Positions 1 to 62,100 of a DNA stretch of 64,000 nt are shown here, piece after piece (within the stretch, counting starts at the first letter, position 1; every line of letters starts with the position of its first letter). A program made the translations under genes and the position numbers. The DNA is taken from assembly GCF_053078305.1 (NCBI RefSeq), contig NZ_CP166879.1; one strand, given 5' to 3'. A model generated the notes under the pieces. That model searched no databases, was not told the origin of the DNA, and saw only the letters and a list, made by a program, of their open reading frames with translations.

Positions 1-148
1 CTTCAGTATAAGCATTCATTTTTCATATGATTTGTGCGCTTGACCGCAAACTGGCATCACACTTGCGGGAAATTCGATAAATAGCACATATGATTAAAAC
101 TCAGACCCAAGTGGTCGGATCACCTGCATATCATAAGAAGGAAACACC

Positions 149-703: not shown

Positions 704-729
704 TGGCAATAACATAAATTCTGGAAAAA

Positions 730-765
730 TAATTTTCCCCTATCGTTATCTATGGGATAGGGGAA
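730..765 (-). terminator. Hairpin terminator downstream of ytfI
   Basis: Inverted repeat CCCCTATC...GATAGGGG at 737-763, A/T-rich flank on minus strand. Confidence 0.45.
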
Positions 766-1704
766 TTAAGTCTCTGAGTTCTTACACCGAACTAATACTG
801 GTAACGCTAGTTGCTCTTTTTTAAACGCCTCAATGGTCGATTTATATTTCTCGCAAATCTTTTCTTTGGTAATATCACTATCTGCGGCCAGATTCGCACT
901 TACTATCGCATCCACTTGTTCGGCTAATTCGACTTGTTGGCAACCTGCATTAACCAGAAAATTATAAATAAGAGAGTAATCTTCATCCTCCAAAACAACA
1001 AAGGAACCATTACGAAAACGTTCATCCCCTCCATAGATTTTAAGCGCAAAGCCCAAAGATTCTATAACTATGGCAAAATCATCATCAATTATTTTTTCGT
1101 AAATATACCATCCATCGCATTCTTTAATTCCACCTCCTGGTATTTGGAGTTCAAATTTACCCCGTTTTAATTTACTTACTATATCCTCCAATAAGGCATA
1201 ACCTAAAGACACGTCACCAATCGCCTGGTGAATATAACCTTTAATCCTTTTCGGTATGTCAGACTGTTTTTTCTGCAGAATATCCCAGGCATACAATCGT
1301 CTGTTTTGTTCTAACGGAAATTCACGGTTTTTGAAATCCATGAATGAGTTATACTCATTTATTGTTATGGGGGTTTCTTCGTATTCAAATCCACTGCCTC
1401 GCAATGTCATTGTATATTCGGCACCGTTATCTTTAAGGCTGAAACTGATAAGAAACTTATCCATAGCGTTAACAGTTCCATTTTTTGATGAAAGCACTTG
1501 ATAACTATCTTTATCAATCTGAGTTGCGCAACGAAAGAACTCCCTCAAAGTTAACAGGCTATCATAATTCGAAATCCAATCTTTTTTCTTAAATGCATGC
1601 TGAATATTATTAAAAAAATTGTTTGAATGTGTTTTTGTATGCGATGATTTTACAAATAACTCCACCGCACCAATAAAATTATTGTGTCTGATCCTGGGTA
1701 ACAT
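766..1704 (-). CDS. ytfI: Uncharacterised protein YtfI (AT-rich gene)
   Basis: 312-aa ORF, strongly AT-rich relative to neighbours; position between ytfJ and cysQ matches K-12 ytfI. Confidence 0.6.
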   Translation of the reverse strand: MLPRIRHNNFIGAVELFVKSSHTKTHSNNFFNNIQHAFKKKDWISNYDSLLTLREFFRCATQIDKDSYQVLSSKNGTVNAMDKFLISFSLKDNGAEYTMTLRGSGFEYEETPITINEYNSFMDFKNREFPLEQNRRLYAWDILQKKQSDIPKRIKGYIHQAIGDVSLGYALLEDIVSKLKRGKFELQIPGGGIKECDGWYIYEKIIDDDFAIVIESLGFALKIYGGDERFRNGSFVVLEDEDYSLIYNFLVNAGCQQVELAEQVDAIVSANLAADSDITKEKICEKYKSTIEAFKKEQLALPVLVRCKNSET

Positions 1705-1915
1705 ATGGCTACCTTATTTTATTAGGTTATTTTATGTCGCCATTAAATATCTCATTATAGAAGTAAACTATCAAAAAACGCTCATTATTAAAATGTAACT
1801 TATTAGCAATTGAATTTTTGCACTTTAAATACAATCTCTTTTTATTTATAACTTATTAGGTTGGGATAAATCAGGATGGCAGAATCAGGAAATACACTGT
1901 TTCTGCCATCTGAAT

Positions 1916-2656
1916 TTAGTAAATAGACACTCTGAACCCCGGATTCAGGAACGACTCGCGCGGAGTGTAATCCAGCGGTTTACCCTGCCAGTCGTGAACG
2001 TGCGCTCCGGCAGCTGCAGCCACAGCATGTCCAGCGGCGGTGTCCCAAATATTCGTTGGTCCGAAGCGCGGGTACAGCTGCGCCTGTCCTTCCGCCACCA
2101 GGCAGAATTTCAGCGAAGAGCCGATGGACGTGGTCTGATGTTCGCCAAGCTGTTGCAGATACTCTTTCAGCTCCGCATCTGCATGGGAACGGCTGATAAC
2201 CACCAGCGGCGGGCGCGCATCGCGGACCTGAATCTGCTTGCGCACACCGCACTCTTCTTTCCAGGCCTTGCCTTCTGCCGCGCTGTACATTACGTTCATT
2301 ACCGGCGCATACACCACACCTAAAATCGGTTTGCCATGATCAATGAGCGCAATGTTAACGGTGAATTCGCCATTACGTTTAATAAACTCTTTAGTACCAT
2401 CCAGTGGGTCTACCAGCCAGTAACGCTGCCAGTGCTGACGGACTTCCCAACCGGGAGGATCTTCTTCAGAAAGGACCGGAATATCCGGTGTCAGCGTACG
2501 TAAACCGTCCATGATAACGGTGTGTGCGGCAATATCCGCTGCCGTTACCGGAGAATTGTCCGCTTTGCTGACGACGTCCATCGGTTTCGTCCCGTCGTAG
2601 ACCTGCATAATGGCATCGCCTGCATTCCGTGCAAGCTGGCATACTTGATCTAACAT
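1916..2656 (-). CDS. cysQ: 3'(2'),5'-bisphosphate nucleotidase CysQ
   Basis: 246-aa ORF, inositol-monophosphatase-family motifs ([17 protein letters not shown]); recognised as CysQ. Confidence 0.95.
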
Positions 2657-2845
2657 TTCTCCACCTCGTCTCTGTGAGCGGTGTTAACTTATTGTTTTAC
2701 TTATACCCTATCGTTAATGAATGCGCCAACTGTGATAGTGTCATCATTTTCAAAGCGTAAAATTGTGGCATTCTTCACTGTTCTATAAGTAAGGCGTTTA
2801 TTCTCCCTTTTCTTTCGTATTCCCGATGATAAAAGGATGTCCCTG

Positions 2846-4789
2846 ATGATTAAGTTTAGCGCAACGCTCCTGGCCACGCTGATTGCCGCCAGTGTGAATG
2901 CAGCGACGGTCGATCTGCGTATCATGGAAACCACTGATCTGCATAGCAACATGATGGATTTCGATTATTACAAAGACACCGCCACGGAAAAATTCGGACT
3001 GGTACGTACGGCAAGCCTGATTAACGATGCCCGCAATGAAGTGAAAAACAGCGTACTGGTTGATAACGGCGACTTGATTCAGGGGAGTCCGCTGGCAGAT
3101 TACATGTCGGCGAAAGGATTAAAAGCAGGCGATATTCACCCGGTCTATAAGGCATTAAATACGCTGGACTATACCGTCGGAACGCTTGGCAACCACGAGT
3201 TTAACTACGGTCTGGATTACCTGAAAAATGCGCTGGCAGGAGCGAAATTCCCTTATGTAAATGCCAACGTCATTGACGCCAGAACCAAACAGCCAATGTT
3301 TACACCGTATTTAATTAAAGACACCGAAGTGGTCGATAAAGACGGAAAAAAACAGACGCTGAAGATTGGCTATATTGGCGTCGTGCCGCCACAAATCATG
3401 GGCTGGGATAAAGCTAATTTATCCGGGAAAGTGACGGTGAATGATATTACCGAAACCGTGCGCAAATACGTGCCTGAAATGCGCGAGAAAGGTGCCGATG
3501 TCGTTGTCGTTCTGGCGCATTCCGGGCTATCTGCCGATCCGTATAAAGTGATGGCGGAAAACTCAGTTTATTACCTCAGTGAAATTCCGGGCGTTAACGC
3601 CATTATGTTTGGCCATGCTCACGCCGTTTTCCCGGGTAAAGATTTTGCTGATATCGAAGGGGCTGATATCGCCAAAGGCACGCTGAATGGTGTTCCGGCG
3701 GTAATGCCAGGCATGTGGGGCGATCATCTTGGTGTGGTCGACTTACAACTCAGTAATGACAGCGGTAAATGGCAGGTGACGCAAGCGAAAGCGGAAGCAC
3801 GACCGATTTACGACATCGCTAATAAAAAATCCCTCGCGGCGGAAGACAGCAAGCTGGTAGAAACACTCAAAGCCGATCACGATGCCACACGCCAGTTCGT
3901 CAGCAAGCCAATCGGTAAATCTGCCGACAATATGTATAGCTATCTGGCGCTGGTGCAGGACGATCCGACCGTGCAGGTGGTGAACAACGCGCAAAAAGCG
4001 TATGTCGAGCATTACATTCAGGGCGATCCCGATCTGGCAAAACTGCCGGTGCTTTCAGCTGCCGCACCGTTTAAAGTTGGTGGTCGCAAAAATGACCCGG
4101 CAAGCTATGTAGAGGTGGAAAAAGGTCAGCTGACTTTCCGTAATGCCGCCGATCTTTATCTCTATCCCAATACGCTGATTGTGGTGAAAGCCAGCGGTAA
4201 AGAGGTGAAAGAGTGGCTGGAGTGCTCCGCCGGACAGTTTAACCAGATTGATCCCAACAGCACGAAACCACAGTCACTCATCAACTGGGACGGTTTCCGC
4301 ACCTATAACTTTGATGTTATTGATGGTGTGAATTATCAGATTGATGTTACCCAGCCCGCCCGTTATGACGGCGAGTGCCAGATGATTAATGCCAATGCGG
4401 AAAGGATTAAGAACCTGACCTTTAATGGCAAGCCGATTGATCCGAACGCTATGTTCCTCGTTGCCACCAATAACTATCGCGCTTACGGCGGCAAATTTGC
4501 CGGTACGGGCGACAGCCATATCGCTTTTGCTTCACCGGATGAGAACCGCTCGGTGCTGGCAGCGTGGATTGCTGATGAGTCGAAACGTGCGGGGGAAATT
4601 CACCCGGCGGCAGATAACAACTGGCGTTTAGCACCGATAGCTGGCGATAAGAAACTGGATATCCGTTTCGAAACTTCCCCGTCAGATAAAGCCGCAGCGT
4701 TTATTAAAGAGAAAGGGCAGTATCCGATGAATAAAGTCGCGACCGATGATATCGGGTTTGCGATTTATCAGGTGGATTTGAGTAAGTAA
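2846..4789 (+). CDS. cpdB: 2',3'-cyclic-nucleotide 2'-phosphodiesterase / 3'-nucleotidase CpdB
   Basis: ORF 2837-4789; start placed at MIKFSATLL (signal peptide) giving 647 aa; metallophosphoesterase motifs (GNHEF, GHAH). Confidence 0.93.
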
Positions 4790-29900: not shown

Positions 29901-30744
29901 GATTCTGGCGAACAACTGAACTAACACATCAGAATCTGCATTATGTTAAATAAATATGAAAAGATGGTTTAAATACCCCGTTACTTTTGACTTACACTAT
30001 ACGGTATCGCTCGTTTAATATTCGCACCGGCCAGATTTTTATTTCTATTAGTTGTCACAATACTGAATGCGTACGACCACAGTATTCTGGCTCCTGTGTG
30101 GTCATGCTTTAATTCTGCGTTCCGGGCAGATAAGCAGTTGCTTGCAGGAATCCTTCTTGTGTTAATATCAGTTCCCCTTTTTACCAGTGCTGATTTCCAC
30201 ATTCCGTCCAACAGAGCTTATAGCCTTTCCCTGGATTATAGCATTGTCCGGCTGAAGTTCTTTTTGAATAATAATAGAAGCACTGCTGGCAGATCCAGTC
30301 CGTTTTTCATAACCAACTGTACTGATAACCATAATCTAATCAGTAGAAATTGAGTCGAAAATAAGCACTACTCCATACAGGATAATTAGAGGTCAGTTTG
30401 ATTATTCACAATTCATCATCAGCATTTTCTGTTTCTGACGAAATCAACATGAAAAGAACCATATATGATAATTATTATAATAACGGCTTTAATTGGAATA
30501 CATATATTACAACGTATTATATATAATTGGTATTCTGGGAACTATATTCTCAAAATACAGTAGAAACGAGGTATGTTTCTGGTGGAAAGGACAGTGGGAT
30601 TAAAAAGTAAGAATTGATAAAAAAAACGCCAGCAACACATAGTGCCGACGGAGGGAATACCCCATGGAGAAAATGTGATGCCTAGAGCATCATGAATATA
30701 TAATTAAAAATAGTTGGCGTTGTCAATACTTTCACAAAAATAAT

Positions 30745-30808
30745 TTTCGTAGTTTCGTAGTTTCGTAGTTTCGTAGTTTCGTAGTTTCGTAGTTTCGTAG
30801 TTTCGTAG
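30745..30808. repeat. Perfect tandem repeat (TTTCGTAG) x 8
   Basis: Eight head-to-tail copies of an 8-bp unit, directly visible in sequence. Confidence 0.95.
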
Positions 30809-32692
30809 TATAGAAAGATATTTTTATGCATGACCTACCTGAATTTGCTCCGGGTAGAGGTTATAAATAAAAATTGAATCACGACAAACACAATATTCAT
30901 AGTGTGGCGATGCCTACGCCAGCAAAAATAGCGCCAATAATGTTGGGAATATAATAGACACCAGACACACAGGCATCTCACTCCTTAACAAACAATAATC
31001 ATGATGTTTACTTTTACTTCACTAACTGTTTGCGCCTAAAGTGCGCACACTTAACCATTCAATAACAAATGGCAATATCCATAGCCATACGACTTTACCT
31101 TGTAATGTTCGGTATTTCTTTATAATTATTCTGGGAAATCTATCATTTATTTTTAAAATCAAATTATCTTGTTGTTTAAAAATAAGTTCACATACTTTAT
31201 CATCTTCTTCCACCATCAACATCTCTGCACACTTAAACATTTCAGAACATTCCTTTAGCACAGAAGAGTGATTATATGTCCAGTTCCCAGGCAATAATGC
31301 TTATGGATATTTAATTCATAATTTAGAGAATATTTTGTAATAATATTTGGCAGTATTCAGAAATACCTGAAAAATCATACTATACAGCCCCAGGGAATAG
31401 ATGAAGATTCTAAAAAAGCATTTCAACAATATATGCTTGTTAAAAATCCATATCGAAATGCCGTTGCAGCATTAATATATGCCTCATTCATAAAATGTAA
31501 AAGAGCAAGCTCGTACCAGTAGGGGGAAAATTCATTGATATGTCCTGTCAATACGTACAGAGCCCTGTCATGCTTGCCAGCACGTAACAATTCCGTCCCC
31601 AGTAACCAGCGTGTCCCCTGATTATTCTCAGGGTTATATGTTAGTATTTTATCAATGAGTATAACGGCATCCTGATGACGCTGTAAATGAACATTCGCCA
31701 GAATTGCAGCATAAAGAGCGCAAATGCATATGCCAGATAAGCGTGAATATCAATGATGTCAGGAGCATGTCAGGCAAGACGCCTGAGTTTGTTGACGTAA
31801 TTTGTTTCGTTTATTTCATCACTATCGTATGCGTCAAGAGTTTTTTCAAACTCATCCCGAAATGAGCCAAGCCTGGTTTCAGGAAATAAGAAATACCCCT
31901 GGTTATTGTTCACTTAAAAGTATAATTTGTAATTCAAATCCTGAGCCTGTAAAACGGGGAGTAACATATTCTACTCTGAAGAGAATAAAAGTCGTGATGC
32001 GATGTATCAAGCCCGGATTGTAATCCCAGATTAACATAGATCACAAAACAACTTATTCTTCACTAACGTCAAGATAAATATCGTTGTATGCCCTATCACG
32101 ACTACGAATACCAGCAAGATACAACTGACATACGGAAAGATACCACGTTTTTTACTCCCGAAAATAACGCTAAAAAGCTACTTCCCCATCGTTTGTCCTT
32201 AGTATTGTCAGCGCCAACAATGTGGGCTGGCATGATAAAGCTGTCTAGGAAATCGTTCACCTCCTCAGCGGACAATCCAAATGGTGATTGTCTCTGTTAA
32301 ACGTTTATTTTGAAGGTCGACTGAATAAGGTGATGACGCTGTAGAATTTTTCACGTGACACAGAATTTTGAACGCTTTCTCTTACAATATTTCAATGTTT
32401 CTATCAGTATTCGCCGGAAGAAGTCATCGACCAAATCATCCCAGTCGTCTCGCACCACTGACCATTCATGGTTGACATGTGGTGGAAATCCGCTTCTACA
32501 GAAACCATTTTTTATTCGCAAAACCGAACACGCCATACGGATAGCTGTTAACTGGCATGCCGAGGCAGTCGTTATTTATATTTAGTTTTGTCAATAATCT
32601 TTATTTTTTGTAAAAGGTAAATATAAATTATTCTCATTATTGTTTGTATTTGTGTATTGTCTTGCCGGTTAACATGATCGGAGATTAGTAAT

Positions 32693-34783
32693 ATGCGAAT
32701 AACCACTCTGGCTTCCGTAGTCATTCCCTGTCTCGGATTTTCAGCCAGCAGCATAGCTGCTGCAGAGGATGTGATGATTGTCTCGGCATCCGGCTATGAG
32801 AAAAAGCTGACTAACGCAGCCGCCAGTGTTTCTGTGATTAGCCAGGAGGAATTGCAGTCCAGCCAGTACCACGATCTGGCGGAGGCTCTGAGATCAGTAG
32901 AGGGTGTGGATGTTGAAAGTGGTACGGGTAAAACCGGTGGGCTGGAAATCAGCATCCGAGGAATGCCAGCCAGTTACACGCTGATACTGATTGATGGTGT
33001 TCGTCAGGGCGGAAGCAGTGACGTGACTCCCAACGGTTTTTCTGCCATGAATACCGGGTTCATGCCCCCTCTGGCCGCCATTGAGCGTATTGAGGTTATC
33101 AGGGGGCCGATGTCCACACTGTATGGCTCTGATGCGATGGGCGGTGTGGTGAATATCATTACCAGAAAGAATGCAGACAAATGGCTCTCTTCCGTCAATG
33201 CAGGGCTGAATCTGCAGGAAAGCAACAAATGGGGTAACAGCAGCCAGTTTAATTTCTGGAGCAGTGGTCCCCTTGTGGATGATTCTGTCAGCCTGCAGGT
33301 ACGCGGTAGCACACAACAGCGTCAGGGCTCATCGGTCACATCACTGAGCGATACAGCAGCCACGCGTATTCCTTATCCCACGGAGTCACAGAATTATAAT
33401 CTTGGTGCACGTCTTGACTGGAAGGTGTCGGAGCAGGATGTGCTCTGGTTTGATATGGATACCACCCGGCAGCGTTATGATAACCGGGATGGGCAACTGG
33501 GGAGTCTGACGGGGGGATATGACCGGACCCTGCGCTATGAGCGAAACAAAATTTCAGCTGGCTATGATCATACTTTCACCTTCGGAACATGGAAATCGTA
33601 TCTGAACTGGAACGAGACAGAAAATAAAGGTCGTGAGCTCGTACGCAGTGTACTGAAGCGCGACAAATGGGGGCTTGCCGGTCAGCCGCGGGAGCTTAAG
33701 GAATCGAACCTTATCCTGAATTCATTACTGCTTACCCCTCTGGGAGAATCTCATCTGGTTACGGTGGGGGGCGAGTTTCAGAGCTCGTCCATGAAAGACG
33801 GAGTTGTCCTTGCCAGCACAGGTGAAACTTTCCGGCAGAAAAGCTGGTCGGTATTTGCTGAGGATGAGTGGCATCTCACGGATGCACTTGCGCTGACTGC
33901 GGGCAGCCGCTATGAACATCATGAGCAATTCGGGGGACACTTCAGTCCGCGTGCATATCTGGTCTGGGATGTGGCAGATGCCTGGACGCTGAAAGGCGGT
34001 GTGACCACGGGATATAAGGCACCCAGAATGGGGCAGCTACATAAAGGGATTAGTGGTGTGTCCGGGCAGGGAAAAACAAATCTACTTGGTAACCCCGACC
34101 TGAAGCCGGAAGAGAGCGTCAGTTATGAGGCTGGGGTGTATTACGATAACCCCGCCGGTCTGAATGCCAATGTCACAGGTTTTATGACTGACTTCTCCAA
34201 CAAGATTGTCTCTTATTCCATAAATGATAACACCAATAGCTATGTAAACAGCGGAAAGGCCCGGTTGCACGGTGTGGAATTTGCCGGCACATTGCCGCTG
34301 TGGTCAGAGGATGTCACGCTGTCACTGAATTACACCTGGACCCGAAGTGAACAACGTGATGGTGATAACAAAGGTGCGCCGCTGAGTTATACCCCTGAAC
34401 ACATGGTGAATGCGAAACTGAACTGGCAGATCACCGAAGAGGTGGCATCATGGCTGGGTGCCCGTTATCGCGGGAAAACACCACGTTTCACCCAGAATTA
34501 TTCGTCACTGAGCGCTGTACAGAAGAAAGTGTATGATGAGAAAGGAGAATACCTGAAAGCCTGGACGGTGGTGGATGCAGGTCTGTCGTGGAAGATGACG
34601 GATGCCCTGACGCTGAATGCTGCGGTGAATAACCTGCTCAACAAGGATTACAGTGACGTGAGCCTGTTCAGTGCCGGTAAGAGTACGCTGTATGCCGGTG
34701 ATTACTTCCAGACGGGATCATCAACAACGGGATATGTGATACCTGAGCGAAATTACTGGATGTCGCTGAACTATCAGTTCTGA
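32693..34783 (+). CDS. iha: TonB-dependent outer-membrane receptor, Iha-like (IrgA homologue adhesin / siderophore receptor)
   Basis: 696-aa ORF; signal peptide, TonB box (DVMIVSAS), plug domain and C-terminal aromatic beta-barrel terminus (NYQF); length and sequence recalled as Iha. Confidence 0.7.
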   Translation: MRITTLASVVIPCLGFSASSIAAAEDVMIVSASGYEKKLTNAAASVSVISQEELQSSQYHDLAEALRSVEGVDVESGTGKTGGLEISIRGMPASYTLILIDGVRQGGSSDVTPNGFSAMNTGFMPPLAAIERIEVIRGPMSTLYGSDAMGGVVNIITRKNADKWLSSVNAGLNLQESNKWGNSSQFNFWSSGPLVDDSVSLQVRGSTQQRQGSSVTSLSDTAATRIPYPTESQNYNLGARLDWKVSEQDVLWFDMDTTRQRYDNRDGQLGSLTGGYDRTLRYERNKISAGYDHTFTFGTWKSYLNWNETENKGRELVRSVLKRDKWGLAGQPRELKESNLILNSLLLTPLGESHLVTVGGEFQSSSMKDGVVLASTGETFRQKSWSVFAEDEWHLTDALALTAGSRYEHHEQFGGHFSPRAYLVWDVADAWTLKGGVTTGYKAPRMGQLHKGISGVSGQGKTNLLGNPDLKPEESVSYEAGVYYDNPAGLNANVTGFMTDFSNKIVSYSINDNTNSYVNSGKARLHGVEFAGTLPLWSEDVTLSLNYTWTRSEQRDGDNKGAPLSYTPEHMVNAKLNWQITEEVASWLGARYRGKTPRFTQNYSSLSAVQKKVYDEKGEYLKAWTVVDAGLSWKMTDALTLNAAVNNLLNKDYSDVSLFSAGKSTLYAGDYFQTGSSTTGYVIPERNYWMSLNYQF

Positions 34784-42752: not shown

Positions 42753-44300
42753 CTACTTGCGTAGCGATAAAATTGCCCGTGCGGTTTCAGCACGGTTATA
42801 GATCTGCATTTTTTTTATTGCAGCATCCACATCTTCACCGCTTTTCTTATTCAGTTTAATCAGAAACTCAACAGGTAATAGCGAAGCTAAATTTTCAAAT
42901 TTTGATTCAGACCAAGTAATGGTTGCAACAGCCCCTTCAGTTCTCTTAATCATTAGTTTTTTAAGTAATTCTAAACGCTCTGGCTCAACAGTTATATAAC
43001 CAATCGGCAGGGTTAATGCACTATCAGAATTAGGTTGACCGTGGTATTGCACCAAAGCAATCACATCAGGAATTAAGAGGATCTCCAAACGATCAAATTT
43101 AGCCTCTGAAGTAAGGCCAATACCGGTAGGAAAACGACCTAAGTGCCGCTTACGCTCTTGACGTTTTTCACCTTCATCTGCACTTGAGTGTAAAAGCGAA
43201 ATGCGAGCAATCTTATCATCGGCATAATTGCCAAGTATATCGCCTAGAGCGCGAGTAAAACGCGAAAGTTGACTACCATTAGCTCCCCACAGTGGTACTT
43301 TACTGCTATACCACAGCGCTTTTGGAGCTGTTTTACCTATATAATCACGTAATGCATTATGCAACATACTAATGAACAGCTTAGAATTGTGCGGCAAATA
43401 AACAGCCCCTAACATGCCGGTAGTCAATGAAGTACCGTAGCCAGTTTTACGTTGTTCACGAGCCTCTATCCAGCCGGAATAGTTGAACTTATAACCATTA
43501 GCAAATTGTAACAACACTTTATCATTTGCTAGTTTACAGAAATCTTCACAGTCGATACCGAATTCATCTAGTTTATGTTCTCCCAAAAAATCTGCGATAT
43601 GAGCTTCCAGCTCGTTTGAAAGCGGCAGCCGGGTGTTACCTAAATATTCATAGGAACGAGTAAATTTCTGCGGCTCAATGCTCCCAGCAGAAACACCGTA
43701 GCTAACCTCTATCTCTATTGGGAGCTGCACCATCTCATGCGAACTACAGCCCATTATCTTATATAATTTAGTCCGTTGACGCTCATACTCGCTGTTGCGG
43801 CTGAGCAAAAGATGGTGCCGAAACTGGGAACTAAAAGCCTCTGTTACCGCAGCAGCATCTCCCCCGATCTGATGCCGCGGCAATAGCTCTGGCAGTCCAG
43901 AAGTAAAACGACGATTTGGTTGCGGTTTACATATCGAAAGAGTTAGTAGATCGAATGCAACTTCCTCCGTACATTCTTGATATTTAACTAAACTTGGCTT
44001 CCCACCATTATTAGCTGCATGCTTACGTAGGAATGAGCTAGCCTCAATATGCCCATCAGGATTAATGTTGATCAGTCTGTTAGCCAGCAACCCATCAAGC
44101 AATACCTCTCGCTCACGATCAGTTAGACCAAAGTAATTCTGTAACTCGCTGGGATAGAGTTGATCAAAAATCAGCAGCAAGCGACATGCAAACTGTTCAA
44201 TTCCAGGCATCAGTTTTTCAGTGGTCAAAGCGCAGTTGATCTTGTAACTACGCGCAGGTAGTAAAACGGTAATCAGATTACCCAGACGTGGTTCTGACAT
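42753..44300 (-). CDS. Hypothetical 515-aa protein, translationally coupled partner of the NERD-kinase-helicase gene
   Basis: Long ORF with start ATG overlapping upstream TAA (TAATG); no recognisable motif by eye. Confidence 0.8.
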   Translation of the reverse strand: MSEPRLGNLITVLLPARSYKINCALTTEKLMPGIEQFACRLLLIFDQLYPSELQNYFGLTDREREVLLDGLLANRLININPDGHIEASSFLRKHAANNGGKPSLVKYQECTEEVAFDLLTLSICKPQPNRRFTSGLPELLPRHQIGGDAAAVTEAFSSQFRHHLLLSRNSEYERQRTKLYKIMGCSSHEMVQLPIEIEVSYGVSAGSIEPQKFTRSYEYLGNTRLPLSNELEAHIADFLGEHKLDEFGIDCEDFCKLANDKVLLQFANGYKFNYSGWIEAREQRKTGYGTSLTTGMLGAVYLPHNSKLFISMLHNALRDYIGKTAPKALWYSSKVPLWGANGSQLSRFTRALGDILGNYADDKIARISLLHSSADEGEKRQERKRHLGRFPTGIGLTSEAKFDRLEILLIPDVIALVQYHGQPNSDSALTLPIGYITVEPERLELLKKLMIKRTEGAVATITWSESKFENLASLLPVEFLIKLNKKSGEDVDAAIKKMQIYNRAETARAILSLRK

Positions 44301-47300
44301 TAGTTGTTATCTCCAAGCAGACTTTGACCACACAGGATTTGGTAGTTGGGTTCATCTACTGCAACCTGTTTACTAATAAATTCATGAACGTTTCCAAGTG
44401 CTGAATCATTATTGGTCTTTGACCACATACGCCTTGCTCCCAGAATCAATAACCTTTCTTGAGCTCGCGAAATAGCAACGTTTATTCGCGGCGCGTCGCG
44501 CAGGAAACCTTGTAGTTTGTTGGGATTATCGCGAACCAGACTGAGGATAATTATCTTGTTTTCCTGGCCCTGATATGAATCAACGGTATCGATCTTGATC
44601 AAACCACGTAACGATGCAGCCCATTCAGCCCGACTGATAGCATTGTCAATTTCCTCTTTTTGCTGACGATACATTGTGATTATACCAATAGGATATGGCT
44701 GTTCTGTGGTAATAGTTTGCTCAAGCTGTGCAATGCAGCCATCACTCGACAATGACTGCAAAGCCTCTAGCAGTAGCCGGACTTCTCGTTGATTATAGTA
44801 ACGACCATTACCCTTATGTTCTTCTGCACCTGCTTCATTAGGGCTCGAACTATCGATCCAAGTAACAGTTTTGTTCCAAGGGATTGGTAACTTGGAATAC
44901 CAATCTGGCGAGACTTTCCTCGATGAATGCAGTTTACCGATATCTTGAGCGTAAAAGCACTCCGATACTAACTCGCCAATTGGTTCTACCATTCGATATT
45001 GAGTATCGAGTGTTACGCCGCCTGTTGCTTTAAAAGCACGTTCAAAATCAGACTCATAAAAGATCCCTTTCCCGAGTTCTAATTTCTTAGAGGCTAACTT
45101 AAGATGCTGTTGATGATAGAATGGTGGCAATTGTTTATGATCCCCTACCAACAGCACCCGCTTGCCTGATTGCAGCGCTACCATCAATTCAGCAGCTTGT
45201 GCTCGGCCAGCCTCATCAACTATTACCCAATCAAAGCTGGACTCAGCTAGTTCTAGTCGACGATTCCCAACACCAACAAGAGTTCCACAAACCAATCGCT
45301 TACTTTTGAACATAAATCGATCAAATCCAGCCTCGCCGCCGCGTAATACATCCATCCACTCTTGGCTCATTTCCAATAGCTGCATAAAACGTTCAAGGTT
45401 CTCTGGATTGTTATAATTGTATTGTATGGCAACTTGCTCAGCCAACTGTCTTATCAAGGTTTCATCATAGACAAGAGTTTTCAGCAAGCTGTCATCGAAT
45501 ATTGAGTTAATAATTTCTTGTGTTCGCAGTTTAAGCTGATTGCTTTGTTCTAATAATTCAGCCAGTCGCTCTTGATGACTAATACTACTACTCTTTATTT
45601 GTTCTACTTTATCCAGCTCACGGCTATATTGGCCATATGTCACCATCAAGGGATTCAGCGTACGATGTAACTGACATAACTGTTGGACTAATAATGGGGC
45701 CATCCCTAGGCGCTTTCCTAGGGAGCTAACTCGCAGATCATATTCACGGTGAAATTTATGCTGAATCTGTCGCTGAAGAGCTTTAGTTGCAACACTTAGC
45801 ATACCCTCATCAATCATAAGTTCATTACCAATACGTACTGTATCCAGTTCCATTCCTTTCGTATGGCAGAGCTCTCGAGCCTTGATGGCTACATTATCAA
45901 CAGAGGCATGGGATTGCCCGACCAAAAGAATGTTATTCACACCGCAATGTTGATACAGATAGTGAATAAATTTTGAAATAAATGTTGTTTTACCTGTTCC
46001 AGGTGGTCCCTGCAGAACTCCAACTGGTCCAAACTCGACCAACTGTTGAAATGCCATTAGCTGCTGTTCATTAAAACGTTGTCCAGGCTGATCATAAAGT
46101 GCGCGTAATGTCTCCGCGGATGGCCGCGGTTGCATTTGCTGCATGCAGGGTTTCTGGTGGTAATCAAAATACTGTGGCAGATGCTGGATCTCTGCTTTGT
46201 TTTCAATTACCCGTTGAAGGGCTCTTTGACGCAACTCTCTTGATGATTTGTCACGGATCGATTCCAATTGTAGCTGGCTGCCGCTACTAATTCGCTTACG
46301 AGCAGCATCAAAATCAAAGCGAATAGCCAATAGACTCGGCGTAGTCTCACTTAGCTGCAATTCCCCTAATTGCACTGATTCACGCTTATCTTTAATATAA
46401 ACAATGATCTTATCATCAAGTTCAAAGCTGAGGTCAGCACCGGATTCCGTAGTATATGGGTAGAGTAAGCAACCACTCGGTGATTCCTGAAAGTCAGTAG
46501 AGTCGATGTTGACTATATCTCGTAGGTCTACTTCTGTATCAGATAATGCCTGCCATAACTCAATTGGGCTTGACTCACTACTATCGAAGTCATCTTCATC
46601 CATCTCTTGATTAGGATTAGCTCGCTCAATGATGGCATCAATTACTGGCTCGAGGTTAAACAGTAGTTCAATAAAAGTATTACGCTGATTAAGTGAGCCA
46701 CGTTGTAATGAAAGTTGAGTATTAATTTTAGCCTGGGAATATTTACCAGCCTTTATACTTTCTTCGATCGATAATCCTTTTTCATACACTATTCTATTAA
46801 TAGTGCGATTATCAGGATCTAAGTCTATCAATAGCCGCTCTCCTAGGCCAGTGATGTAACAACGCAATTCATGCGCAAAGCGTGGGTTAGATGACCAGTT
46901 ACATTGAAAATAATAGATCCCATCATTTTGTTCTAGAAGCTTCACTTCTTGCGGCCAATCATCTGTGCCCCAGCAAACAGGAATTACCTTATCCTGTGAC
47001 TCAGACGCCACAACTTGATTAATCTCAGCTTGTTCCGGTGCTCGAATTGACTGCAGCAAAGGATCGAGCGCGATAGGTATACCGTCAACGGTTTGTTTTG
47101 CGCGTTCTAGCTCAGCCTGCACCAGTACTGGCATATCTTCACTAAATAGCTCCTCCACCATACGATATACTGCAAAGCAATCTCGCCCAAAAGCATCAGT
47201 ACTTTCGGGATTCTCTGGCTGGTAGCGATTATCTGCAGTTAATTCATCACTGAATTCAAGCAATCCAATCAGAGTAATTACTGTCTGCTCCCCGACTTGT

Positions 47301-49258
47301 ACCAGCAGTTTCTCTGGGCAAAGATCTCCATGAGGTAACTGCTTTTCATGAAAAGCATGAATGGTGTTGATCAACTTTTCCGCAATTGTAAAACGTTGGG
47401 ATTGTACTAACACGTTCTCAGCAATAAACTGTGACCACGGTAGGCCATCCACATACTCGCTCACTACATACAAGCCGCCTTGTCCTAATAGTCCATAGGA
47501 CTGCACCTTAGGAGTTGGCAGATTTATATGCGTAAGCTTATCGATCCGTTGCTTAAAAGCGTGGATACGGCGGTTAACACCAGGTTGTTGAGGGGTCAAA
47601 ATAACACCATCCCACAATTTTACCTGCAGAGCTTTCCCACCTTGTTCACAGTGATAACTGATGCTGCCAGTCGTAGCAATAGCAGCAAGAGCAGAGTAAA
47701 CCATAGACAACTGTTCAGGAAGTGGAGGAAACTCAATTAACACACCAACGCTGTTCATCCCTTCGCGAAAGAATTTGTTTTGCTTTAATTCTTGATAAAT
47801 CTGGTTAGCTTCATCAAATTCTTGGCTATGTTCCTTAGTAGCTGCATTAAACTCATTGAGCATTATGTCCGCACGTGGAAAGCGTTTACTTGGCTCAAGG
47901 TTAAGAGCTTGCTCAAACCAGCTATTTAGAATACCGCTAAAAGGATCAGTTAATGGAGCTCTCCATTCAGGCATCTGTCCAGGAGTCAGTAATGATTCAC
48001 CTGCAAAACAAATACGATAAGCAATTACAGCCAACATGAATACATCTAGGCGATAGGGCTCAACTGCTTCTTCAAAAGCATCTTCGGGCAAAATATATGG
48101 AGCACTTTGCAATGTCGGACGCAATGACTCTAGGCTATTATGTCCCTCCAGTGAGGCTGCGCCAAAGCCAGTAACGACAATGCTCTTCTGATCCCCTGCG
48201 TACCATAGATTGTGCGGGTCAATATCACAATGACTGATACCCAAGCTATGTAATTCCGAGAATGGAGCTAATAATGCACGAACGCGATCAATACGCTCAG
48301 ATTTACTCCATCCGTCAGCTTCGCTATCTAGAATCTCATCTAATCGGCTAAAACTACGGCGTAACTCATACAGCTCACGGGCATCATCAGTTATATCCTC
48401 CTCGGATAGTTCCCTTACAGCACGCAACATATAATCCTGCATAGTTGCGCTGCCATGACGAACTAGGCGACCGACTCGAGTCTCACGCAGAGCTATCTCA
48501 GCCCACAATGTTTGCATTGCGTTTGCTACACCCAAGGCATCAAAGTTCCACTGCCGTAGCAGACCTCTGTGTTGACTATTGTCTTTGTGGGTAGCCCTGA
48601 ATTCGTTGTAGACCATGTGAGGGTGACTAAAGAATGGCTTATCGTTCGCAAGATAACCGCTTTCTTTTAGTGGCAAAGGCCTGACTTTTGGTCCTTCAAA
48701 GAAGGACTTAATTATAGGTAATGCCTCATCAGAATTTGGTCGAGGCTTTCCCCCTTCAAAAAGATGAAAAAAGTTAGTGTGTTGCACCAGCTTTTCGTAA
48801 TTTTTTGGGTTACCTATAGTCAAGAATTCATCACGGGTATGAACATAGCGCCTCTCACTTAATGGCAAGTTTTCAGGACCAGCTGTGCCACACAGCACTA
48901 CATGAGCCTCAACATGCAAAAAGTAACCCAGCTTACGAGATAACTCTTCCTGCAACAAATCTTTTAGTCGCAGTGCATGCTCACGCTTGATCTGATAGGG
49001 ACTTTTGCCTCGTGACTTACCATTTTGCAGCCACTTCCCCCCTTCAAATGTGATGTTACCATTCCACTCTTTAAGCTCGACTAATAGCAGACGGTCAGCA
49101 GTAATAATTAGCATATCGATTTCCATCGACCCTTGGCTATCAGTAACAACTAAGCCAGCATAGCCAAACCAACTATCTGGTAACTGCTTAACCATCATAT
49201 CAACTGTTTTGGTTTCGCTGCGGTGCAGGCCAGCACCACCTACTATCTGATACTTCAC
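44300..49258 (-). CDS. 1652-aa multidomain protein: N-terminal NERD-like nuclease domain, two protein-kinase-like domains, C-terminal SF1 (Upf1/DNA2-like) helicase
   Basis: NERD-like D...ELK region (aa ~45-65); kinase catalytic-loop-like HCDIDPHN (aa 343-350) and HGDLCPEK (aa 643-650); Walker A GPPGTGKTT (aa ~1084), Walker B VIVDEAG, SF1 motif TVDSYQGQE. Confidence 0.85.
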   Translation of the reverse strand: MKYQIVGGAGLHRSETKTVDMMVKQLPDSWFGYAGLVVTDSQGSMEIDMLIITADRLLLVELKEWNGNITFEGGKWLQNGKSRGKSPYQIKREHALRLKDLLQEELSRKLGYFLHVEAHVVLCGTAGPENLPLSERRYVHTRDEFLTIGNPKNYEKLVQHTNFFHLFEGGKPRPNSDEALPIIKSFFEGPKVRPLPLKESGYLANDKPFFSHPHMVYNEFRATHKDNSQHRGLLRQWNFDALGVANAMQTLWAEIALRETRVGRLVRHGSATMQDYMLRAVRELSEEDITDDARELYELRRSFSRLDEILDSEADGWSKSERIDRVRALLAPFSELHSLGISHCDIDPHNLWYAGDQKSIVVTGFGAASLEGHNSLESLRPTLQSAPYILPEDAFEEAVEPYRLDVFMLAVIAYRICFAGESLLTPGQMPEWRAPLTDPFSGILNSWFEQALNLEPSKRFPRADIMLNEFNAATKEHSQEFDEANQIYQELKQNKFFREGMNSVGVLIEFPPLPEQLSMVYSALAAIATTGSISYHCEQGGKALQVKLWDGVILTPQQPGVNRRIHAFKQRIDKLTHINLPTPKVQSYGLLGQGGLYVVSEYVDGLPWSQFIAENVLVQSQRFTIAEKLINTIHAFHEKQLPHGDLCPEKLLVQVGEQTVITLIGLLEFSDELTADNRYQPENPESTDAFGRDCFAVYRMVEELFSEDMPVLVQAELERAKQTVDGIPIALDPLLQSIRAPEQAEINQVVASESQDKVIPVCWGTDDWPQEVKLLEQNDGIYYFQCNWSSNPRFAHELRCYITGLGERLLIDLDPDNRTINRIVYEKGLSIEESIKAGKYSQAKINTQLSLQRGSLNQRNTFIELLFNLEPVIDAIIERANPNQEMDEDDFDSSESSPIELWQALSDTEVDLRDIVNIDSTDFQESPSGCLLYPYTTESGADLSFELDDKIIVYIKDKRESVQLGELQLSETTPSLLAIRFDFDAARKRISSGSQLQLESIRDKSSRELRQRALQRVIENKAEIQHLPQYFDYHQKPCMQQMQPRPSAETLRALYDQPGQRFNEQQLMAFQQLVEFGPVGVLQGPPGTGKTTFISKFIHYLYQHCGVNNILLVGQSHASVDNVAIKARELCHTKGMELDTVRIGNELMIDEGMLSVATKALQRQIQHKFHREYDLRVSSLGKRLGMAPLLVQQLCQLHRTLNPLMVTYGQYSRELDKVEQIKSSSISHQERLAELLEQSNQLKLRTQEIINSIFDDSLLKTLVYDETLIRQLAEQVAIQYNYNNPENLERFMQLLEMSQEWMDVLRGGEAGFDRFMFKSKRLVCGTLVGVGNRRLELAESSFDWVIVDEAGRAQAAELMVALQSGKRVLLVGDHKQLPPFYHQQHLKLASKKLELGKGIFYESDFERAFKATGGVTLDTQYRMVEPIGELVSECFYAQDIGKLHSSRKVSPDWYSKLPIPWNKTVTWIDSSSPNEAGAEEHKGNGRYYNQREVRLLLEALQSLSSDGCIAQLEQTITTEQPYPIGIITMYRQQKEEIDNAISRAEWAASLRGLIKIDTVDSYQGQENKIIILSLVRDNPNKLQGFLRDAPRINVAISRAQERLLILGARRMWSKTNNDSALGNVHEFISKQVAVDEPNYQILCGQSLLGDNN

Positions 49259-55921: not shown

Positions 55922-56197
55922 CTATTTTTTATCTTCTTTTCTTTCTTGTAACTTTGCTTTTATCCAAATACCAATCCCTGCTAACATACCAGCCCCTCCC
56001 CCCACCTTTAAAGAATAAATAATATCTGCCCTCCAATCAAAAAATAAAACTTGAGTTTTAGAAAAAACTATCAGTCTACCAAGAATAGTACCTAACATTG
56101 CCATAAAAAAGATGCAAGCTATGCAGCGCATTATTAGTATGATAAGAATGTAAAAGTTGACACTCTTATTTATTTTTAATGGATTTATCAGCTTCAT
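55922..56197 (-). CDS. cdiI: Putative CdiI immunity protein (small polytopic membrane protein)
   Basis: 91-aa hydrophobic ORF immediately downstream of and overlapping the cdiA 3' end; start may be an internal Met. Confidence 0.6.
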   Translation of the reverse strand: MKLINPLKINKSVNFYILIILIMRCIACIFFMAMLGTILGRLIVFSKTQVLFFDWRADIIYSLKVGGGAGMLAGIGIWIKAKLQERKEDKK

Positions 56198-59100
56198 CTA
56201 GTGTTCCTTTTGTTACATTCCCGATAGCTTCACCAGTAATTGTTCCCCCAATATTACCAATAATATCAGATGTTCCCTCTTTGACAGTAGAGCCCATTGA
56301 CCCCGAGATGACTTTCCCTATACCGCCACCAAATACTGAACCTAATCCTGTCCCAATAACTGAATTTGTCGGATCCTCGCCTTTAATACTACTACCAATT
56401 GCCGCGCCGCTCATGTTGATAGGAGTTGAGACGATGATGCCTTTACCGGTTGTAGCTGCAGCTGTCACCCCAGCCATTATCGCATCCACATAACTGAAAG
56501 GACCTTTTCCAGCAAGCTGAGCAGCTGAGTTTACGCTGATACCAATTGCTGCATTAGTCGCCATACCTTTCACTGTTAACCCCAGTACGCTTCCTCCAAA
56601 CAACAAAGGAGCATCACCAATACTTGCATTAGATTTATGATACCCCCAGGTATTCATAATGCTTTGAGCCTTTGCCATTGCTTCAGTATCAGGGTTACGT
56701 TTTATATAGTCCTGTCCTGACAGTAACCCGGTAACAAGCTCCTGTGCCACCGCTGTACCGTACTCCTTTTCCATTTCTGAAGCATATACACGCAAGTAAG
56801 CTGCCAGTTCAGCACGTTCTGCGCTGTTTAATTGTGAAGGATCTTTATTAAATTTGGATACCAGAGCATCACTACGTTTATCTGCATTTTCCAGCTTAAT
56901 CAGCTCATTAGCAGTGGCTAATGTCTTATCGCCGTTCCTGATTTTCTCAATGGCTTTATCCAGTTTGTCAGAAGATGTCGCTCCCAGAAAGTTATTCTCA
57001 ACAGTCGTCTTACCTGACTGTGCGCCGGCTACCGCTGAAGCCCCCGAGTTGCCCACCAGACCACCGGCCAGGCCGGCAGCAACCGTTGCCAGTGTCGAGA
57101 CCGTCTGCTTCTCTGTCTCGCTCAGTTCACTCACCGGCTTACCGTACATCTGTGTGGCTATCATTCCCACCACCTCGCCGGTGGCAGCCCCTGCGGCACC
57201 GGCAAGGGCATTATTTCCCTGTGCCACCGCCAGCGCGGCATTCACAACCGCATGGGCGGCCACACGCCCCGCACCGTCCGGGGTGTTATTTTTGATTATT
57301 TCTGCAATGTACGGCGCAGCACCACCTGCCAGGGCTGCACTCAGATTACCACCGGCCAGTCCCTGTACCGCTGCCGTTGCAGCCTGTATCGCCTGCTGGT
57401 ATTTGCCTCCCGTTCCAAAACCGGAGGCTGCCATACCGTTATTGTAGGCCCGCTGTGCCACATCCTGTTCCGTGAACGGTTTTCCTGCTGCCTCAAGCTC
57501 CGCACGGGCCTGATTCAGTGCTGCCGGGTCCCGCTTCGCTTTCTCACCGGCTATCTGTCCTTCCGTTCTGGCAATATCTGCCACCTGGTTACCAATCTCA
57601 CCAATGAGTTGCGCCTGCTGCAGTCGCTGCTGCTCTTTTTCCCTGTCAAAGATGGGGGACAGCGTCTGATTTGCATGTGCTGCGTCACGGTTCAGGTCTG
57701 CCACATCCTGTTTCTGGCTCTGCGTATCCCGGATGGTGATATTCCCGGCAGACACTGCCGACTGCGTGGTACTGTCCGCATGGCCTTCATGATTTGCACC
57801 GACCAGCAGATTGTTTGCCATGTTCCCCAGGAAATTTCCAGCAACACTGCCACCGGTACTGAGCCCTGTACTCTGATGTTCCGTTTTAAAGTCGGCCCGG
57901 TTTTCAATGTCACTGAAGCCCAGTGTGCCGGTATCCAGCCTGTTTTTATCTGCCGTTGCCGTGGACGCAATCACCGCACCGTTCAGTTGCGTATGCTGTC
58001 CGGTGGTGACATCAAACCCGCCCCTGCCGGCAAAAATCCCCGTCTGCTCCTGTACACTGTCGTAGTTACTGTGCATTTTATCCCGGCTGAGGTTCACACT
58101 CGCCGAACCGCTCATGGACCCGAAAATGAAGCTGCCTCCGGCGCTGGCATTCTGCTGCTTACTGTCATAACGGTCACTGTCCTGCTCACTGGTCAGTGTC
58201 AGATGACGACCGGCATCCACTTTCACCGTTTCACCGCCAGCCTGCGCGCCGGTAAGCGTGGTGTCCCGCCCGCTGATAATGGTCAGCCGGTTTCCCGCAT
58301 CCACCGTGGTTTCTGTATGGGTGGTACCGTTGCCTTTTTCACTGCCCTTACCCTGGTTTGCGCTGGCTGAAACACTGATACCCCAGCCTCCGGAGCCCAC
58401 ACCAACACCGACACCCACGCTGCCACCACTGGATGTGTTCTTTCCTTCCAGCTTTGACGTGTTTTCTGCTGATACCAGATTCACGTCACGGTTTGCCTGC
58501 AGCAGAACGTTGTTCCCGGCCTTTATCTGACTGCCCTGTATCGTCAGGTCACCATCCACGCCCTTCACGCCGGAGCCGGTGGCCTGAATACTGAGGTTAT
58601 TACCTGCGGTCAGTGTACTGCCCTTCGCCACCGTCTGCTCTGACTGCTGTTCTGATTTCGAAGACTGGCTGCCGTAAGAGAGGCTGATGCCCACCGTGTT
58701 ATTATTTCCGGCATCGGCTCCCTGCGCGTCTGCCAGTCGTCCGGCCTGCACGGCCTGAGCCCCCGAGAGCGCGGCCTTCACCCCCTGCAGGGCTTCAAGC
58801 CGGCTGTTTCCGGCAGATTTCGCCGCCTGTACGGTCTCCACCGTCGTATTCAGGGCGCTGCCCGCTGTGCCGGACAGGGCAAGCGTCAGACCGGAGGTTT
58901 TCTGCTCCACCGTATGTGTCTGTACATGCTGGTCTGTGGCGGCGGTAATGCTGACCTCCTTACCGCTGAGTGCCATGTCCCTGCCGGCAATCAGGTCAGA
59001 GCCGTTGACGGTCAACCGGTTACCTGCCTGAAGGGAAACATCACCGTGAACACTCCCCACCGTGCTGCCTTTCTGTGTGGTGTCTGTTGCGGTGTCCGTG

Positions 59101-62100
59101 ACTTTCAGACTCTGGCTGCCCATGCTGAATCCCACACCTCCGGAGCTCATCAGCCCAGATTTTTTCTCCTGTTTCAGGTGTGTTTCACGGTTGCTTTCTG
59201 TCAGCGTGCCGATACTCAGGTCATTTCCGGCAGCCAGGGAGACACGGTTATCCCCGGCCACACTGCTGCCCGTGACGTTCAGATTATGTCCGGCACTGAT
59301 ACTGACCGTATCCCCGTTCAGTTCACTGCCCGTCATGGTCCGGCGGTCAGTGACATCATGCGTGGTTGTGGTGGTTTTCGATAACATCCCGCTGCTGCCG
59401 GTCACTTTATGGTATTCATCCAGCGAGCGGGTATTCTGTGCACCGGTCAGCGTCACGTCATGACCTGCCATCAGGGCCAGGCCTTTCTGAGCTGACAGCG
59501 ATGCCGCCTGTGACGTCATATCCCGTCCGGCGGTCAGCGTGACATCACCGTTACCGGCAAGCGTGCTGCCCGTACTCTGTGTGACGCCCTGCGACAGACG
59601 ATTATTTTTATCCCAGATAATATTGTCCTGCGCGGAAGTGGTCACAGTGGAAAGCGTCATATCCCTGCCCGCACTGAGTTGCGTCAGGCTGTCCTTACCC
59701 TGATTCACCACCGTTGCAGCCGTCAGATTCATATCCCGTCCGGCCTGCAGCACCAGTCTTCCCTGGTCGTTCTGCACATACACGCCGGCCACACTGTCGA
59801 TACTGGTACGTTCAAAATGGTTCTGTCCGGCGTCGCGCTGTGCCGTACGGGTGGTGGTGGTCAGACTGATATCCCGTCCGGCCATCGCCAGCAGGCTGTC
59901 CGTGGCCTGCAGCAGCCCGCCGGTACTGTTAATATCCGTCCGGGCCGTCAGGCTGACATTTGCTCCCTGAATGGAGCCGGCCTGGTTGTGAATGTTTTCT
60001 GCACTGAGCTGCACGGTCTGCTTCCCGGCCAGTTTACCGCTGTTAAACAGGTCACCATCCAGCTTCATCACCATGTCCCTGCCGGCAATCAGCGCACCGG
60101 CGCTGTTCACATCACCGGGTTTTACACGGGCATACACCTGAGGTACCTGAACCGTCTGCGTGCTGCCGTCCGGCAGTGTCACCGTGGTGTTAACCAGCCA
60201 GACAATATCACCGGTCAGTAACGCCATCTGCTCAGCAGTCAGCGCCACACCTGGTGTCAGGTTGTATTGCTTACCAAATGCAATACCCGCATCCATTAAC
60301 GCCTTAAACTGCTCTTCATCATTACTGTATCCGTCCAGGTACCGTTGCCCGGTCAGAGCGACAACCTGCTCACGAATCAGACGCTGTTCGTAAAAACCAT
60401 CCCCCAGGCGTTTGAGCATGTTATCCCCGTTCTGAGAAAACGCCTTCTGCATGTAATCACTGCCCAGCCACGTCTTCTGGTTCGTAAAACGCGGGTCCGT
60501 TTCAACCAGATATGGCACATTCACTGCCGGGTTTGTTTTAAACAGGCTGCTGTCCGGCAGACGGGTATCCGGCCCGGCAACATGGATACTGCCCTGAGGT
60601 GCGCTGACTTCAAACTGCTGCCCCGGCAACAGAATGACCGGTTCACCGGCAGACACCACCGGGCGAAGCGGTATCCGGTCAGTAGCGGCTACTGCCGCAT
60701 CCACATTTCCGGCCTGTCCTGTCTGTACATCCGTTCCCTGTGGCTTCAGAGGAGAAAGCGTGACCTGGCTGCCCTGAATCTGTCCGTGGCTGGTGAGCTC
60801 TCCCGGCTTCAGCGTAATGCTCTGAATTACAGTGGGCGGAGTGTACTGAGAGGTTTTCTCCCCCTGCTTATCCTTTCCTTTTTTCCTGATACGGTAATAA
60901 TACGTGGATGTTCCTGAGTCCGTAACATGCCGCTCGCCACTGACACTGACATTTTCCACGCTTCCTGACGGAATGGTCAGCAGGCCGCCTGCAACAACCT
61001 GACTCTTATCATTAAGCAGTTTGTCTGCCACAATCGTCATGCCGGCACCGGACAGAATTTTTCCCGGGTCGGAGTCTTTTACCCGGGTTTCTTCCACGGT
61101 ACGGGTGTAATCATACTGCGTGAATTTATCTCTGGCGCCTTCCGGTGTATGCAGTTTTTTCAGTGAGTTACTGGAATCGTTATCCACATAAACGCCCGGT
61201 TCACCGGCGCTCCAGCGTTTATCTGAGCCGCTGAGCTGATACTCAGTCACCTTTTCCGTGGAAACCACCACGCGCTCCGTGGTGAAATGGTCATTGACGT
61301 TATTGATTTGTCCGGCACTCAGTACCAGATATCCGGCGGCTTCAATAGTGGCACTGTGATTATTCAGTACACCGGCTTTCCCCGTGGCGGCACCATTCGC
61401 ATCCAGCATGCCACCAGTATGCATATCACCTGCACTGTAAATCAGGCTGTGCGTCCGGTTATTCAGGGTCTGTACCCCTAAGTCCACACGCTCACGCCCG
61501 GCCAGCGTCGCCGCCACGCCATTTTCTTCCAGATTATTAAATGTGGCAGCGCTGACACCAACAGCATCGCCGTAGATTCGCCCGGTACCGGAATTCGTCA
61601 GGGTGTTCGCCTGAAGATGCGTATATTTCCCGTCAATCAGCCCACGGTTCAGCAGTGTGTCCGTCACGTTAAGCCAGGTCTGCCCGGCACTGATTTCACC
61701 TTTCTCTGTGTTTTCAAGGCGGATGCTGTTCAGGTCAAGCCGGCTGCCTGCCAGCAGGCTGCCGGTATTAGAGACATCGCCATTAACGGAAAGCGTAAGG
61801 TTTCCGTTCGCAATAGTCTGACCACTGTTGCTGAACGTTGTGTTACTTTTCAGCGTCATATCGCCCAGCGAAAGCAGTTTCCCGTCACCACCGAGCTGAC
61901 CGGCATCCACAGATACTGACTGCCCGGCCTTAACCACGCCGTCACGGTTCGAAAACGCCAGCTGACGGCCACTGACAGACAATGTCGCGCCGGAAGAGAG
62001 GACGCCGTCATTATTACTGAGCGTCCTGTCTGCCATAACCGTAAGCGCCCTGTCTGCCAGAATACTGCCCTCCTGGTTATCAAGGTCCTGCGTCGTGATG

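Follow-up and report, generated by a model that had tools for sequence, protein, structure and literature searches.

The window analyzed here, a 64,000-nucleotide (64-kb) stretch of DNA, is an island segment of an Escherichia coli chromosome, fbpC to iha. In the record of strain CE0007a, which matches a 3-kb query around the repeat described below at 99.9%, fbpC is an iron ABC transporter gene and iha a bifunctional siderophore receptor/adhesin gene; the RefSeq annotation of that strain places only transposase fragments, frameshifted hypothetical genes or pseudogene fragments, and short hypothetical ORFs in the interval between them. An initial reading of the sequence alone had described the surroundings of the repeat as AT-rich and gene-poor, and both descriptions hold: pseudogene fragments and short hypothetical ORFs are all that is annotated, and GC content is 0.33-0.37 at 30000-32000 compared with about 0.52 in the flanking genes, the AT-rich stretch around the array spanning 4-5 kb in all (GC 0.33-0.45). 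Downstream in the island, very large ORFs (515, 1652, and 2606 aa) at 42753-49258 (-) and 56166-63986 (-) are possibly two-partner secretion or adhesin genes. The features of the locus itself are collected in Table 1.

Table 1. Coordinates of features at the esr41 locus; positions with a sign are relative to the Esr41 5' end.
Feature	Window position	Strand	Description	Basis
Perfect array (TTTCGTAG)x8	30745-30808		minus-strand unit CTACGAAA	Tandem Repeats Finder and direct reading
esr41, 74-nt Hfq-dependent small RNA	30618-30691	-		Rfam RF02676
Esr41 intrinsic terminator	30617-30650	-	8-pair GC-rich stem (30650 to 30627), then T8	terminator scan and Rfam structure line
-35 hexamer TTGACA	30721-30726	-	6/6; -35 to -30	read from sequence
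-10 region TTATATA	30697-30703	-	-12 to -6	read from sequence
Proximal UP-element-like tract AAAATTATTTTTGTGAA	30731-30747	-	-56 to -40	13/14 specified positions of AAAWWTWTTTTNNNAAA
Distal UP-like A/T tract AAAAATATCTTTCTATA	30809-30825	-	far side of the array, directly adjoining it	12/14 consensus match
iha	32693-34783	+	in the window

Tandem Repeats Finder gives the array a period of 8, 8.1 copies, 100% matches, no indels, and the consensus TTTCGTAG over 30745-30809, with a score of 130 as against 52 for the runner-up in the 64-kb window; together with direct reading of the sequence, this bears out the perfect eightfold repeat of an 8-bp unit that had been reported at first sight. The longest period-8 self-match run in the window is 65 bp, whereas 200 shuffles gave a maximum of 20 bp and a mean of 15.8, so that the array consists of head-to-tail identical units to an extent far beyond chance, as a variable-number tandem repeat (VNTR) should.

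A transcript does lie nearby, on the opposite strand. The gene for the small RNA Esr41, missed by the sequence-only reading (which had proposed a check for a downstream gene with expression that changes with copy number), matches Rfam RF02676 over the full length of the model (30691 to 30618, model positions 1-74 of 74, 99.8 bits, E 2.1e-19) and has a fold z-score of -3.3. The match falls 2 bits under the Rfam gathering score of 102, the esr41 genes of five other alleles (L002, L006, L007, L008, and L009) scoring 103.4-108.6 bits; the shortfall reflects a C to T change at 30648, private to the window and absent from 19/19 other alleles, by which one G-C pair in the terminator stem becomes G-U.

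We take the first base of the Rfam model as +1, and the promoter geometry given here is inferred from that base rather than from a measured transcription start. The -35 hexamer is unchanged in 20/20 alleles. The -10 hexamer is imperfect and allows two readings, TATATA (18-nt spacer) and TTATAT (17-nt spacer); a consensus promoter scan omits it because the required A2/T6 combination is absent, and on neither strand does such a scan place a promoter-like site across the array. Counted along the minus strand, the array occupies -54 to -117 of esr41, within the promoter region, and adjoins first the proximal UP-like tract (scored, like the distal tract, against the consensus AAAWWTWTTTTNNNAAA of PMC2412878) and then TTGACA. 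The repeat unit nearest the promoter supplies, as its last three bases, the first three A's of the proximal tract, so the array begins where that tract begins and parts it from the distal UP-like tract, which is itself unchanged in 20/20 alleles. In a scan of both strands of the 64 kb, at least 12/14 matches to the UP consensus occur at 14 positions and 13/14 matches at 4 positions, which represent 3 distinct loci. The gap between the two tracts at esr41 is 5 bp in one-unit alleles and 61 bp in the window, and the distal tract accordingly lies at -62 to -78 with 1 unit, at -118 to -134 with 8, and at -214 to -230 with 20. It had been suggested that the array might be a promoter-spacing element. 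Only loosely might this apply, to an array that lies upstream of the UP-like tract and the -35 box; in the strict sense of a repeat within the -35/-10 spacer it is ruled out, as 18 bp separate the array from the -35 box downstream of it and the spacer (30720-30704) is unique sequence.

Two further observations concern the same promoter region. A CRP-like core, TGTGA-N6-TGACA (9/10), at 30721-30736 (-) overlaps the -35 box and is centered near -37.5; it may be coincidental, since TTGACA resembles a CRP half-site. In strain G1/2, a 7-bp deletion (L008, about 3092-3137, corresponding to window 30700-30706) changes ACTATTTTTAATTATATATTC to ACTATTTTATATTC and shortens the -35/-10 spacing by 7 bp, so that this promoter should, to judge from its sequence, be inactive; the promoter of the related strain G6/7 is intact, and both strains have an A to G change at Esr41 position 2.

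Could the repeat instead be translated? A 49-aa minus-strand ORF that starts with the ATG at 30831 and runs to 30682 passes straight through the array, where it would encode a YETTKLRN-repeat peptide. The ORF exists because three units (24 bp) preserve the reading frame, and as the 8-bp unit is not a multiple of three, copy number could in principle set the frame of a small phase-variable gene. Across the 20 alleles, however, copy number modulo 3 decides which of three different short tails the ORF takes, and the reading always stops within the promoter or the 5' end of esr41; none of the frames opens onto a longer downstream product, the ORF has no Pfam or NCBIfam match, no RefSeq annotation lies beneath the locus match, and the one-copy majority allele yields an unrelated 23-aa peptide. 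We consider a coding phase switch effectively refuted and give it almost no credence, in agreement with the original view that the repeat lies outside any convincing ORF.

The four neighboring short ORFs are likewise without a Pfam or NCBIfam match. On the same strand as esr41, and upstream of the array, a 20-codon hydrophobic ORF (MPVCLVSIIFPTLLALFLLA, 30914-30976) is preceded by a strong Shine-Dalgarno sequence, AAGGAG, and is overlapped by two more short hydrophobic ORFs in different frames; it lacks its start codon in the G strains and has neither a family match nor an annotation. It could be a small membrane peptide, decayed or real; to judge by inspection of the aligned sequences, each of the three hydrophobic frames that overlap at 30835-30991 is disrupted in at least one haplotype. 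A hot spot of diversity at 30959-31058, with pi 0.09-0.17 and 14-22 variable columns in each 50 bp, is located at the start of these ORFs and the 3' end of an annotated 72-aa hypothetical ORF; it is the one exception to a profile that is otherwise low across the whole aligned segment (pi 0-0.02).

A 351-bp query centered on the repeat finds the locus in 694/5426 complete E. coli genomes. Copy number, as inferred from the matched length in each record, is one unit in about 78% of these, two units in about 10%, and 3-20 units in about 9-10%; an evenly spaced sample of 60 records gave 47 with one unit, 6 with two, 6 expanded, and 1 partial match. The one-unit strains include O157:H7, O111, O145, and O104:H4, and the two-unit strains are mostly extraintestinal. 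The best-ranked 60 of the 694 records all have at least three units, and an expanded array is present in 60 to about 70 genomes. Matched length is not always a reliable guide: for strain G1/2 it suggested 3 units, and the sequence has 4 units together with the 7-bp promoter deletion, which is why the alleles that we describe as read directly were counted from sequence.

Direct counts of the 19 fetched loci gave 1, 1, 2, 3, 4, 4, 5, 6, 7, 8, 8, 9, 11, 12, 13, 14, 16, 17, and 20 units; with the 8 units of the window, the 20 sequences represent 16 different alleles, all with perfect arrays and identical junctions. The 2-kb flanks of these 20 sequences fall into four haplotype groups: i) the fbpC-linked type, to which the window belongs, with 2, 5, 8, and 8 units; ii) an IS66-flanked type from LEE-negative Shiga-toxin-producing and bovine strains, with 3, 7, 8, 9, 11, 12, 13, 14, 17, and 20 units; iii) an iutA-linked type, with 4, 4, 6, and 16 units; and iv) the EHEC type, with 1 and 1. 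Since expanded arrays are found on three of the flank haplotypes, expansion must have arisen on at least three backgrounds. Within one background the unit count shifts much faster than base substitutions accumulate: arrays of 20 and 8 units (L002 and L019) have 0 differences in 2 kb of flank, arrays of 17, 13, and 12 units share 5 kb of identical flank, and arrays of 13 and 12 units are separated by 1 mismatch in 40,286 bp of flank.

Copy number is thus polymorphic, from 1 to 20 units, between conserved flanks. The sequence-only reading had called the array prone to slippage and proposed that copy number be compared across isolates, and the two points on which it had let its interpretation depend both come out in its favor, for copy number is not constant and a transcript lies nearby. 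The array is inert at 1-2 units and freely variable at 3 or more, with at least one single-unit step between near-identical strains; this is the behavior that slipped-strand mispairing predicts for simple-sequence repeats, few-unit arrays being inert and many-unit arrays variable. Near-duplicate sets of isolates (SW0716xx, UC42xx/43xx, S1-KEN-03/04, and 94-3024 with CFSAN002236) each share one matched length and hence one inferred copy number, which argues for a moderate rate of change, unlike that of a classical contingency locus, and for stability over the very short term. Assembly errors are an unlikely source of the copy-number differences because complete genomes from many laboratories are concordant and the arrays are at most 160 bp. 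We conclude, with very little doubt, that the array is a slippage-driven VNTR in the upstream promoter region of esr41.

Beyond these genomes, an exact-match search with a 31-nt Esr41 core in 100,044 species-representative genomes found nothing except a single contig from a metagenome-assembled genome labeled 'Collinsella sp.' (JAIJJM010000258.1, L023, 4261 bp), which carries the esr41 region with a one-unit E. coli-type allele and is almost certainly mis-binned E. coli DNA. A plasmid collection yielded three E. coli records, each with one unit; two plasmid-labeled records, CP061244.1 (1.41 Mb) and NZ_CP124741.1 (287 kb, EDL933), carry the chromosomal iha-esr41 island segment, and their size and content suggest mis-assigned chromosome fragments. 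Some genomes have two esr41 loci, as in O111:H8 strain 7-58 72A (L016), whose fetched copy is fbpC-linked with 5 units; the second copy may be the one-unit EHEC type, in which case two alleles would coexist in one cell.

That the array varies does not by itself say what, if anything, the variation does. Direct repeats next to a promoter, at least one of which is kept by every carrier examined, might be operators, each unit or pair of units binding a regulator whose recruitment to the esr41 promoter, or titration there, would be set by copy number. We regard such a binding-site array as very improbable. Regulators that bind in tandem use the helical repeat of 10-11 bp, and successive 8-bp units (about 0.76 turn) do not lie on one face of the helix; none of the consensus motifs tried (Fur, CRP, IHF, and Fis) matches within the array; and most strains have a single unit, copy number being otherwise free to range from 1 to 20. 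An iteron-like array was rejected on the same grounds of helical phase and motif. Nor does the DNA beside the repeat look like a conserved upstream operator. About 100 nt adjoining the array are invariant in 20/20 alleles, but diversity is low throughout the segment, so that this invariance is not evidence of selection; the rest of the segment is at least as conserved as the adjoining flank, and nothing therefore points to a selected operator. Upstream of esr41, no site reached 13/19 of the Fur consensus or 8/9 of the IHF consensus, Fis-like matches occurred at background frequency only, and we know of no regulator of esr41.

An effect of the array on esr41 might instead be a matter of geometry. 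Slipped-strand mispairing during replication would add or remove 8-bp units; each extra unit would, by our inference, shift the distal A/T tract and the DNA upstream of it by 8 bp, or about 0.76 helical turn, from the core promoter; such a shift could affect how the alpha C-terminal domains of RNA polymerase contact the DNA, how upstream DNA is wrapped, or how readily nucleoid proteins reach this AT-rich DNA; and the outcome would be a graded Esr41 output, a heritable and reversible dial rather than an on/off switch, with effects by way of Esr41 on chuA, cirA, bfr, colicin Ia/Ib sensitivity, and LEE and flagellar expression. Whatever the copy number, the core promoter and the full proximal tract remain intact, so that both alpha C-terminal domains may already be satisfied and the contribution of the distal tract to transcription may be small. 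In our analysis the regulatory step is evenly poised, and copy number may or may not measurably affect the level of Esr41, because the core promoter and proximal tract are constant, the observed alleles (1-9, 11-14, 16, 17, and 20 units) show no preference for a helical phase, and well-studied strains work with one unit.

The repeat could also have nothing to regulate. As a neutral VNTR it would be a by-product of slippage in decaying AT-rich island DNA, with esr41 as a chance neighbor, and would serve at most as a strain marker; we rate this as a serious prospect, if somewhat short of probable. The surrounding segment is full of pseudogene fragments; expansion leaves the core promoter and the proximal UP-like tract untouched; in about 78% of carriers, all well-studied EHEC included, a single unit goes together with a working Esr41; and, as noted, the alleles are without phase preference, the adjacent flank is without excess conservation, and no recognizable regulator site is present. 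Chance would also have to account for an array whose start coincides exactly with that of an UP-like element and which parts the two best UP-like tracts of the region, and for the lack of any consequence when 8-152 bp are inserted at -54 to -61, a change that often alters promoter output, as in the Helicobacter pylori precedents discussed below. An effect on Esr41 level is in any case a lesser claim than a function. That the copy number of the repeat has a selected, biologically meaningful role strikes us as unlikely, and we are doubtful in much the same degree that copy number is a genuine dial, both heritable and reversible, on an Hfq-dependent virulence sRNA that was acquired horizontally.

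Variable repeats that act on transcription from a promoter-proximal position are known, and the esr41 array resembles several of them in part. Among the closest is the T-repeat upstream of the H. pylori sRNA HPnc4160 (IsoB/NikS), whose length sets the level of the sRNA multiphasically and increases during infection (PMC8035401). Like that tract, the E. coli array is a slippage-prone repeat in the promoter region of a trans-acting sRNA that regulates virulence, and its length varies between strains; unlike that tract, a mononucleotide run with a measured effect, it has an 8-bp unit and would, as far as the promoter can be read from the sequence, lie upstream of both an UP element and the -35 box. 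At H. pylori sabA, a T-tract beside the -35 box acts as a 'rheostat' that realigns UP-like elements (PMC4081817; PMC11162790). There, as at esr41, a promoter-proximal repeat parts the core promoter from an upstream A/T-rich UP-like element, and its length alters both distance and axial alignment. The sabA tract, however, separates every UP-like element of that promoter from its core, whereas at esr41 the proximal UP-like tract stays in place and only the distal one is displaced, and the length step is 8 bp at esr41 as compared with 1 bp at sabA.

The esr41 repeat also has features of two classes familiar from other settings. In Neisseria meningitidis, a TAAA repeat upstream of the -35 box of nadA modulates by its copy number the level of transcription and not the reading frame; the sites of flanking regulators (NadR and IHF) are known, and the effect of the repeat has been measured. 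The esr41 array likewise has a multi-base unit and lies upstream of the -35 box, outside the spacer. The VNTR loci used for multilocus typing (MLVA) of E. coli, in the O157 and generic CVN schemes, are short perfect arrays that are polymorphic and yet stable within very recent clones, and the esr41 array, too, is short, perfect, and polymorphic between strains; most published E. coli MLVA loci have in-frame units of 6 bp or longer. A full-text search with several rotations of the unit, most subscription journals being outside its reach, found no published E. coli typing scheme that uses it, and its only matches were unrelated primers; nor did the accessible literature yield a description of a repeat adjacent to esr41. 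The locus is uninformative for typing O157:H7, which has a single unit.

The accessible accounts of Esr41 are set in O157:H7, a one-unit context, and label it 'EHEC-specific' (PMC5286369; PMC7873438). Esr41 represses cirA, chuA, and bfr, which function in iron uptake and storage, and confers resistance to colicins Ia and Ib on the sensitive strain DH5alpha, and its deletion alters fitness in low iron (PMC5286369); it also represses LEE and activates fliC (PMC7873438). In the accessible portion of the Esr41 literature, which includes PMC5286369 and PMC7873438 and their citations of Sudo 2014/2018 and Waters 2017, we found mention neither of an upstream repeat nor of the control of esr41 transcription. 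Because Esr41 is present in 694/5426 complete E. coli genomes, non-EHEC strains among them, the 'EHEC-specific' label is too narrow. The gene is unannotated in RefSeq records, and its carriers include uropathogenic, avian, wastewater, and LEE-negative STEC strains as well as three strains from the feces of healthy humans (G1/2, G6/7, and G8).

The array is, then, a promoter-proximal variable repeat, a known class of element, here beside an sRNA gene in E. coli, and it is the adjoining sRNA promoter that makes the repeat interesting. Esr41 belongs to the small number of E. coli island sRNAs whose targets have been validated (chuA, cirA, and bfr, in addition to its effects on LEE and flagella), so that a repeat at its promoter is a candidate source of strain differences in iron acquisition, colicin susceptibility, and the balance of virulence-gene expression. 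The relevance would be greatest for the LEE-negative Shiga-toxin-producing and bovine strains in which expanded alleles cluster. Even if there is no dial, the array, with its 16 or more alleles, is still a high-resolution marker wherever a lineage has one of the expanded island types. If there is one, lineages with the iha-esr41 island would be able to reset siderophore and heme receptors, colicin Ia/Ib sensitivity, type III secretion, and motility by changing the number of units. To our knowledge the Enterobacteriaceae are usually regarded as poor in simple-repeat contingency loci; with a dial at esr41, the family would have its first sRNA promoter tuned by a repeat, and a mode of sRNA control shown so far in Helicobacter pylori would extend to E. 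coli.
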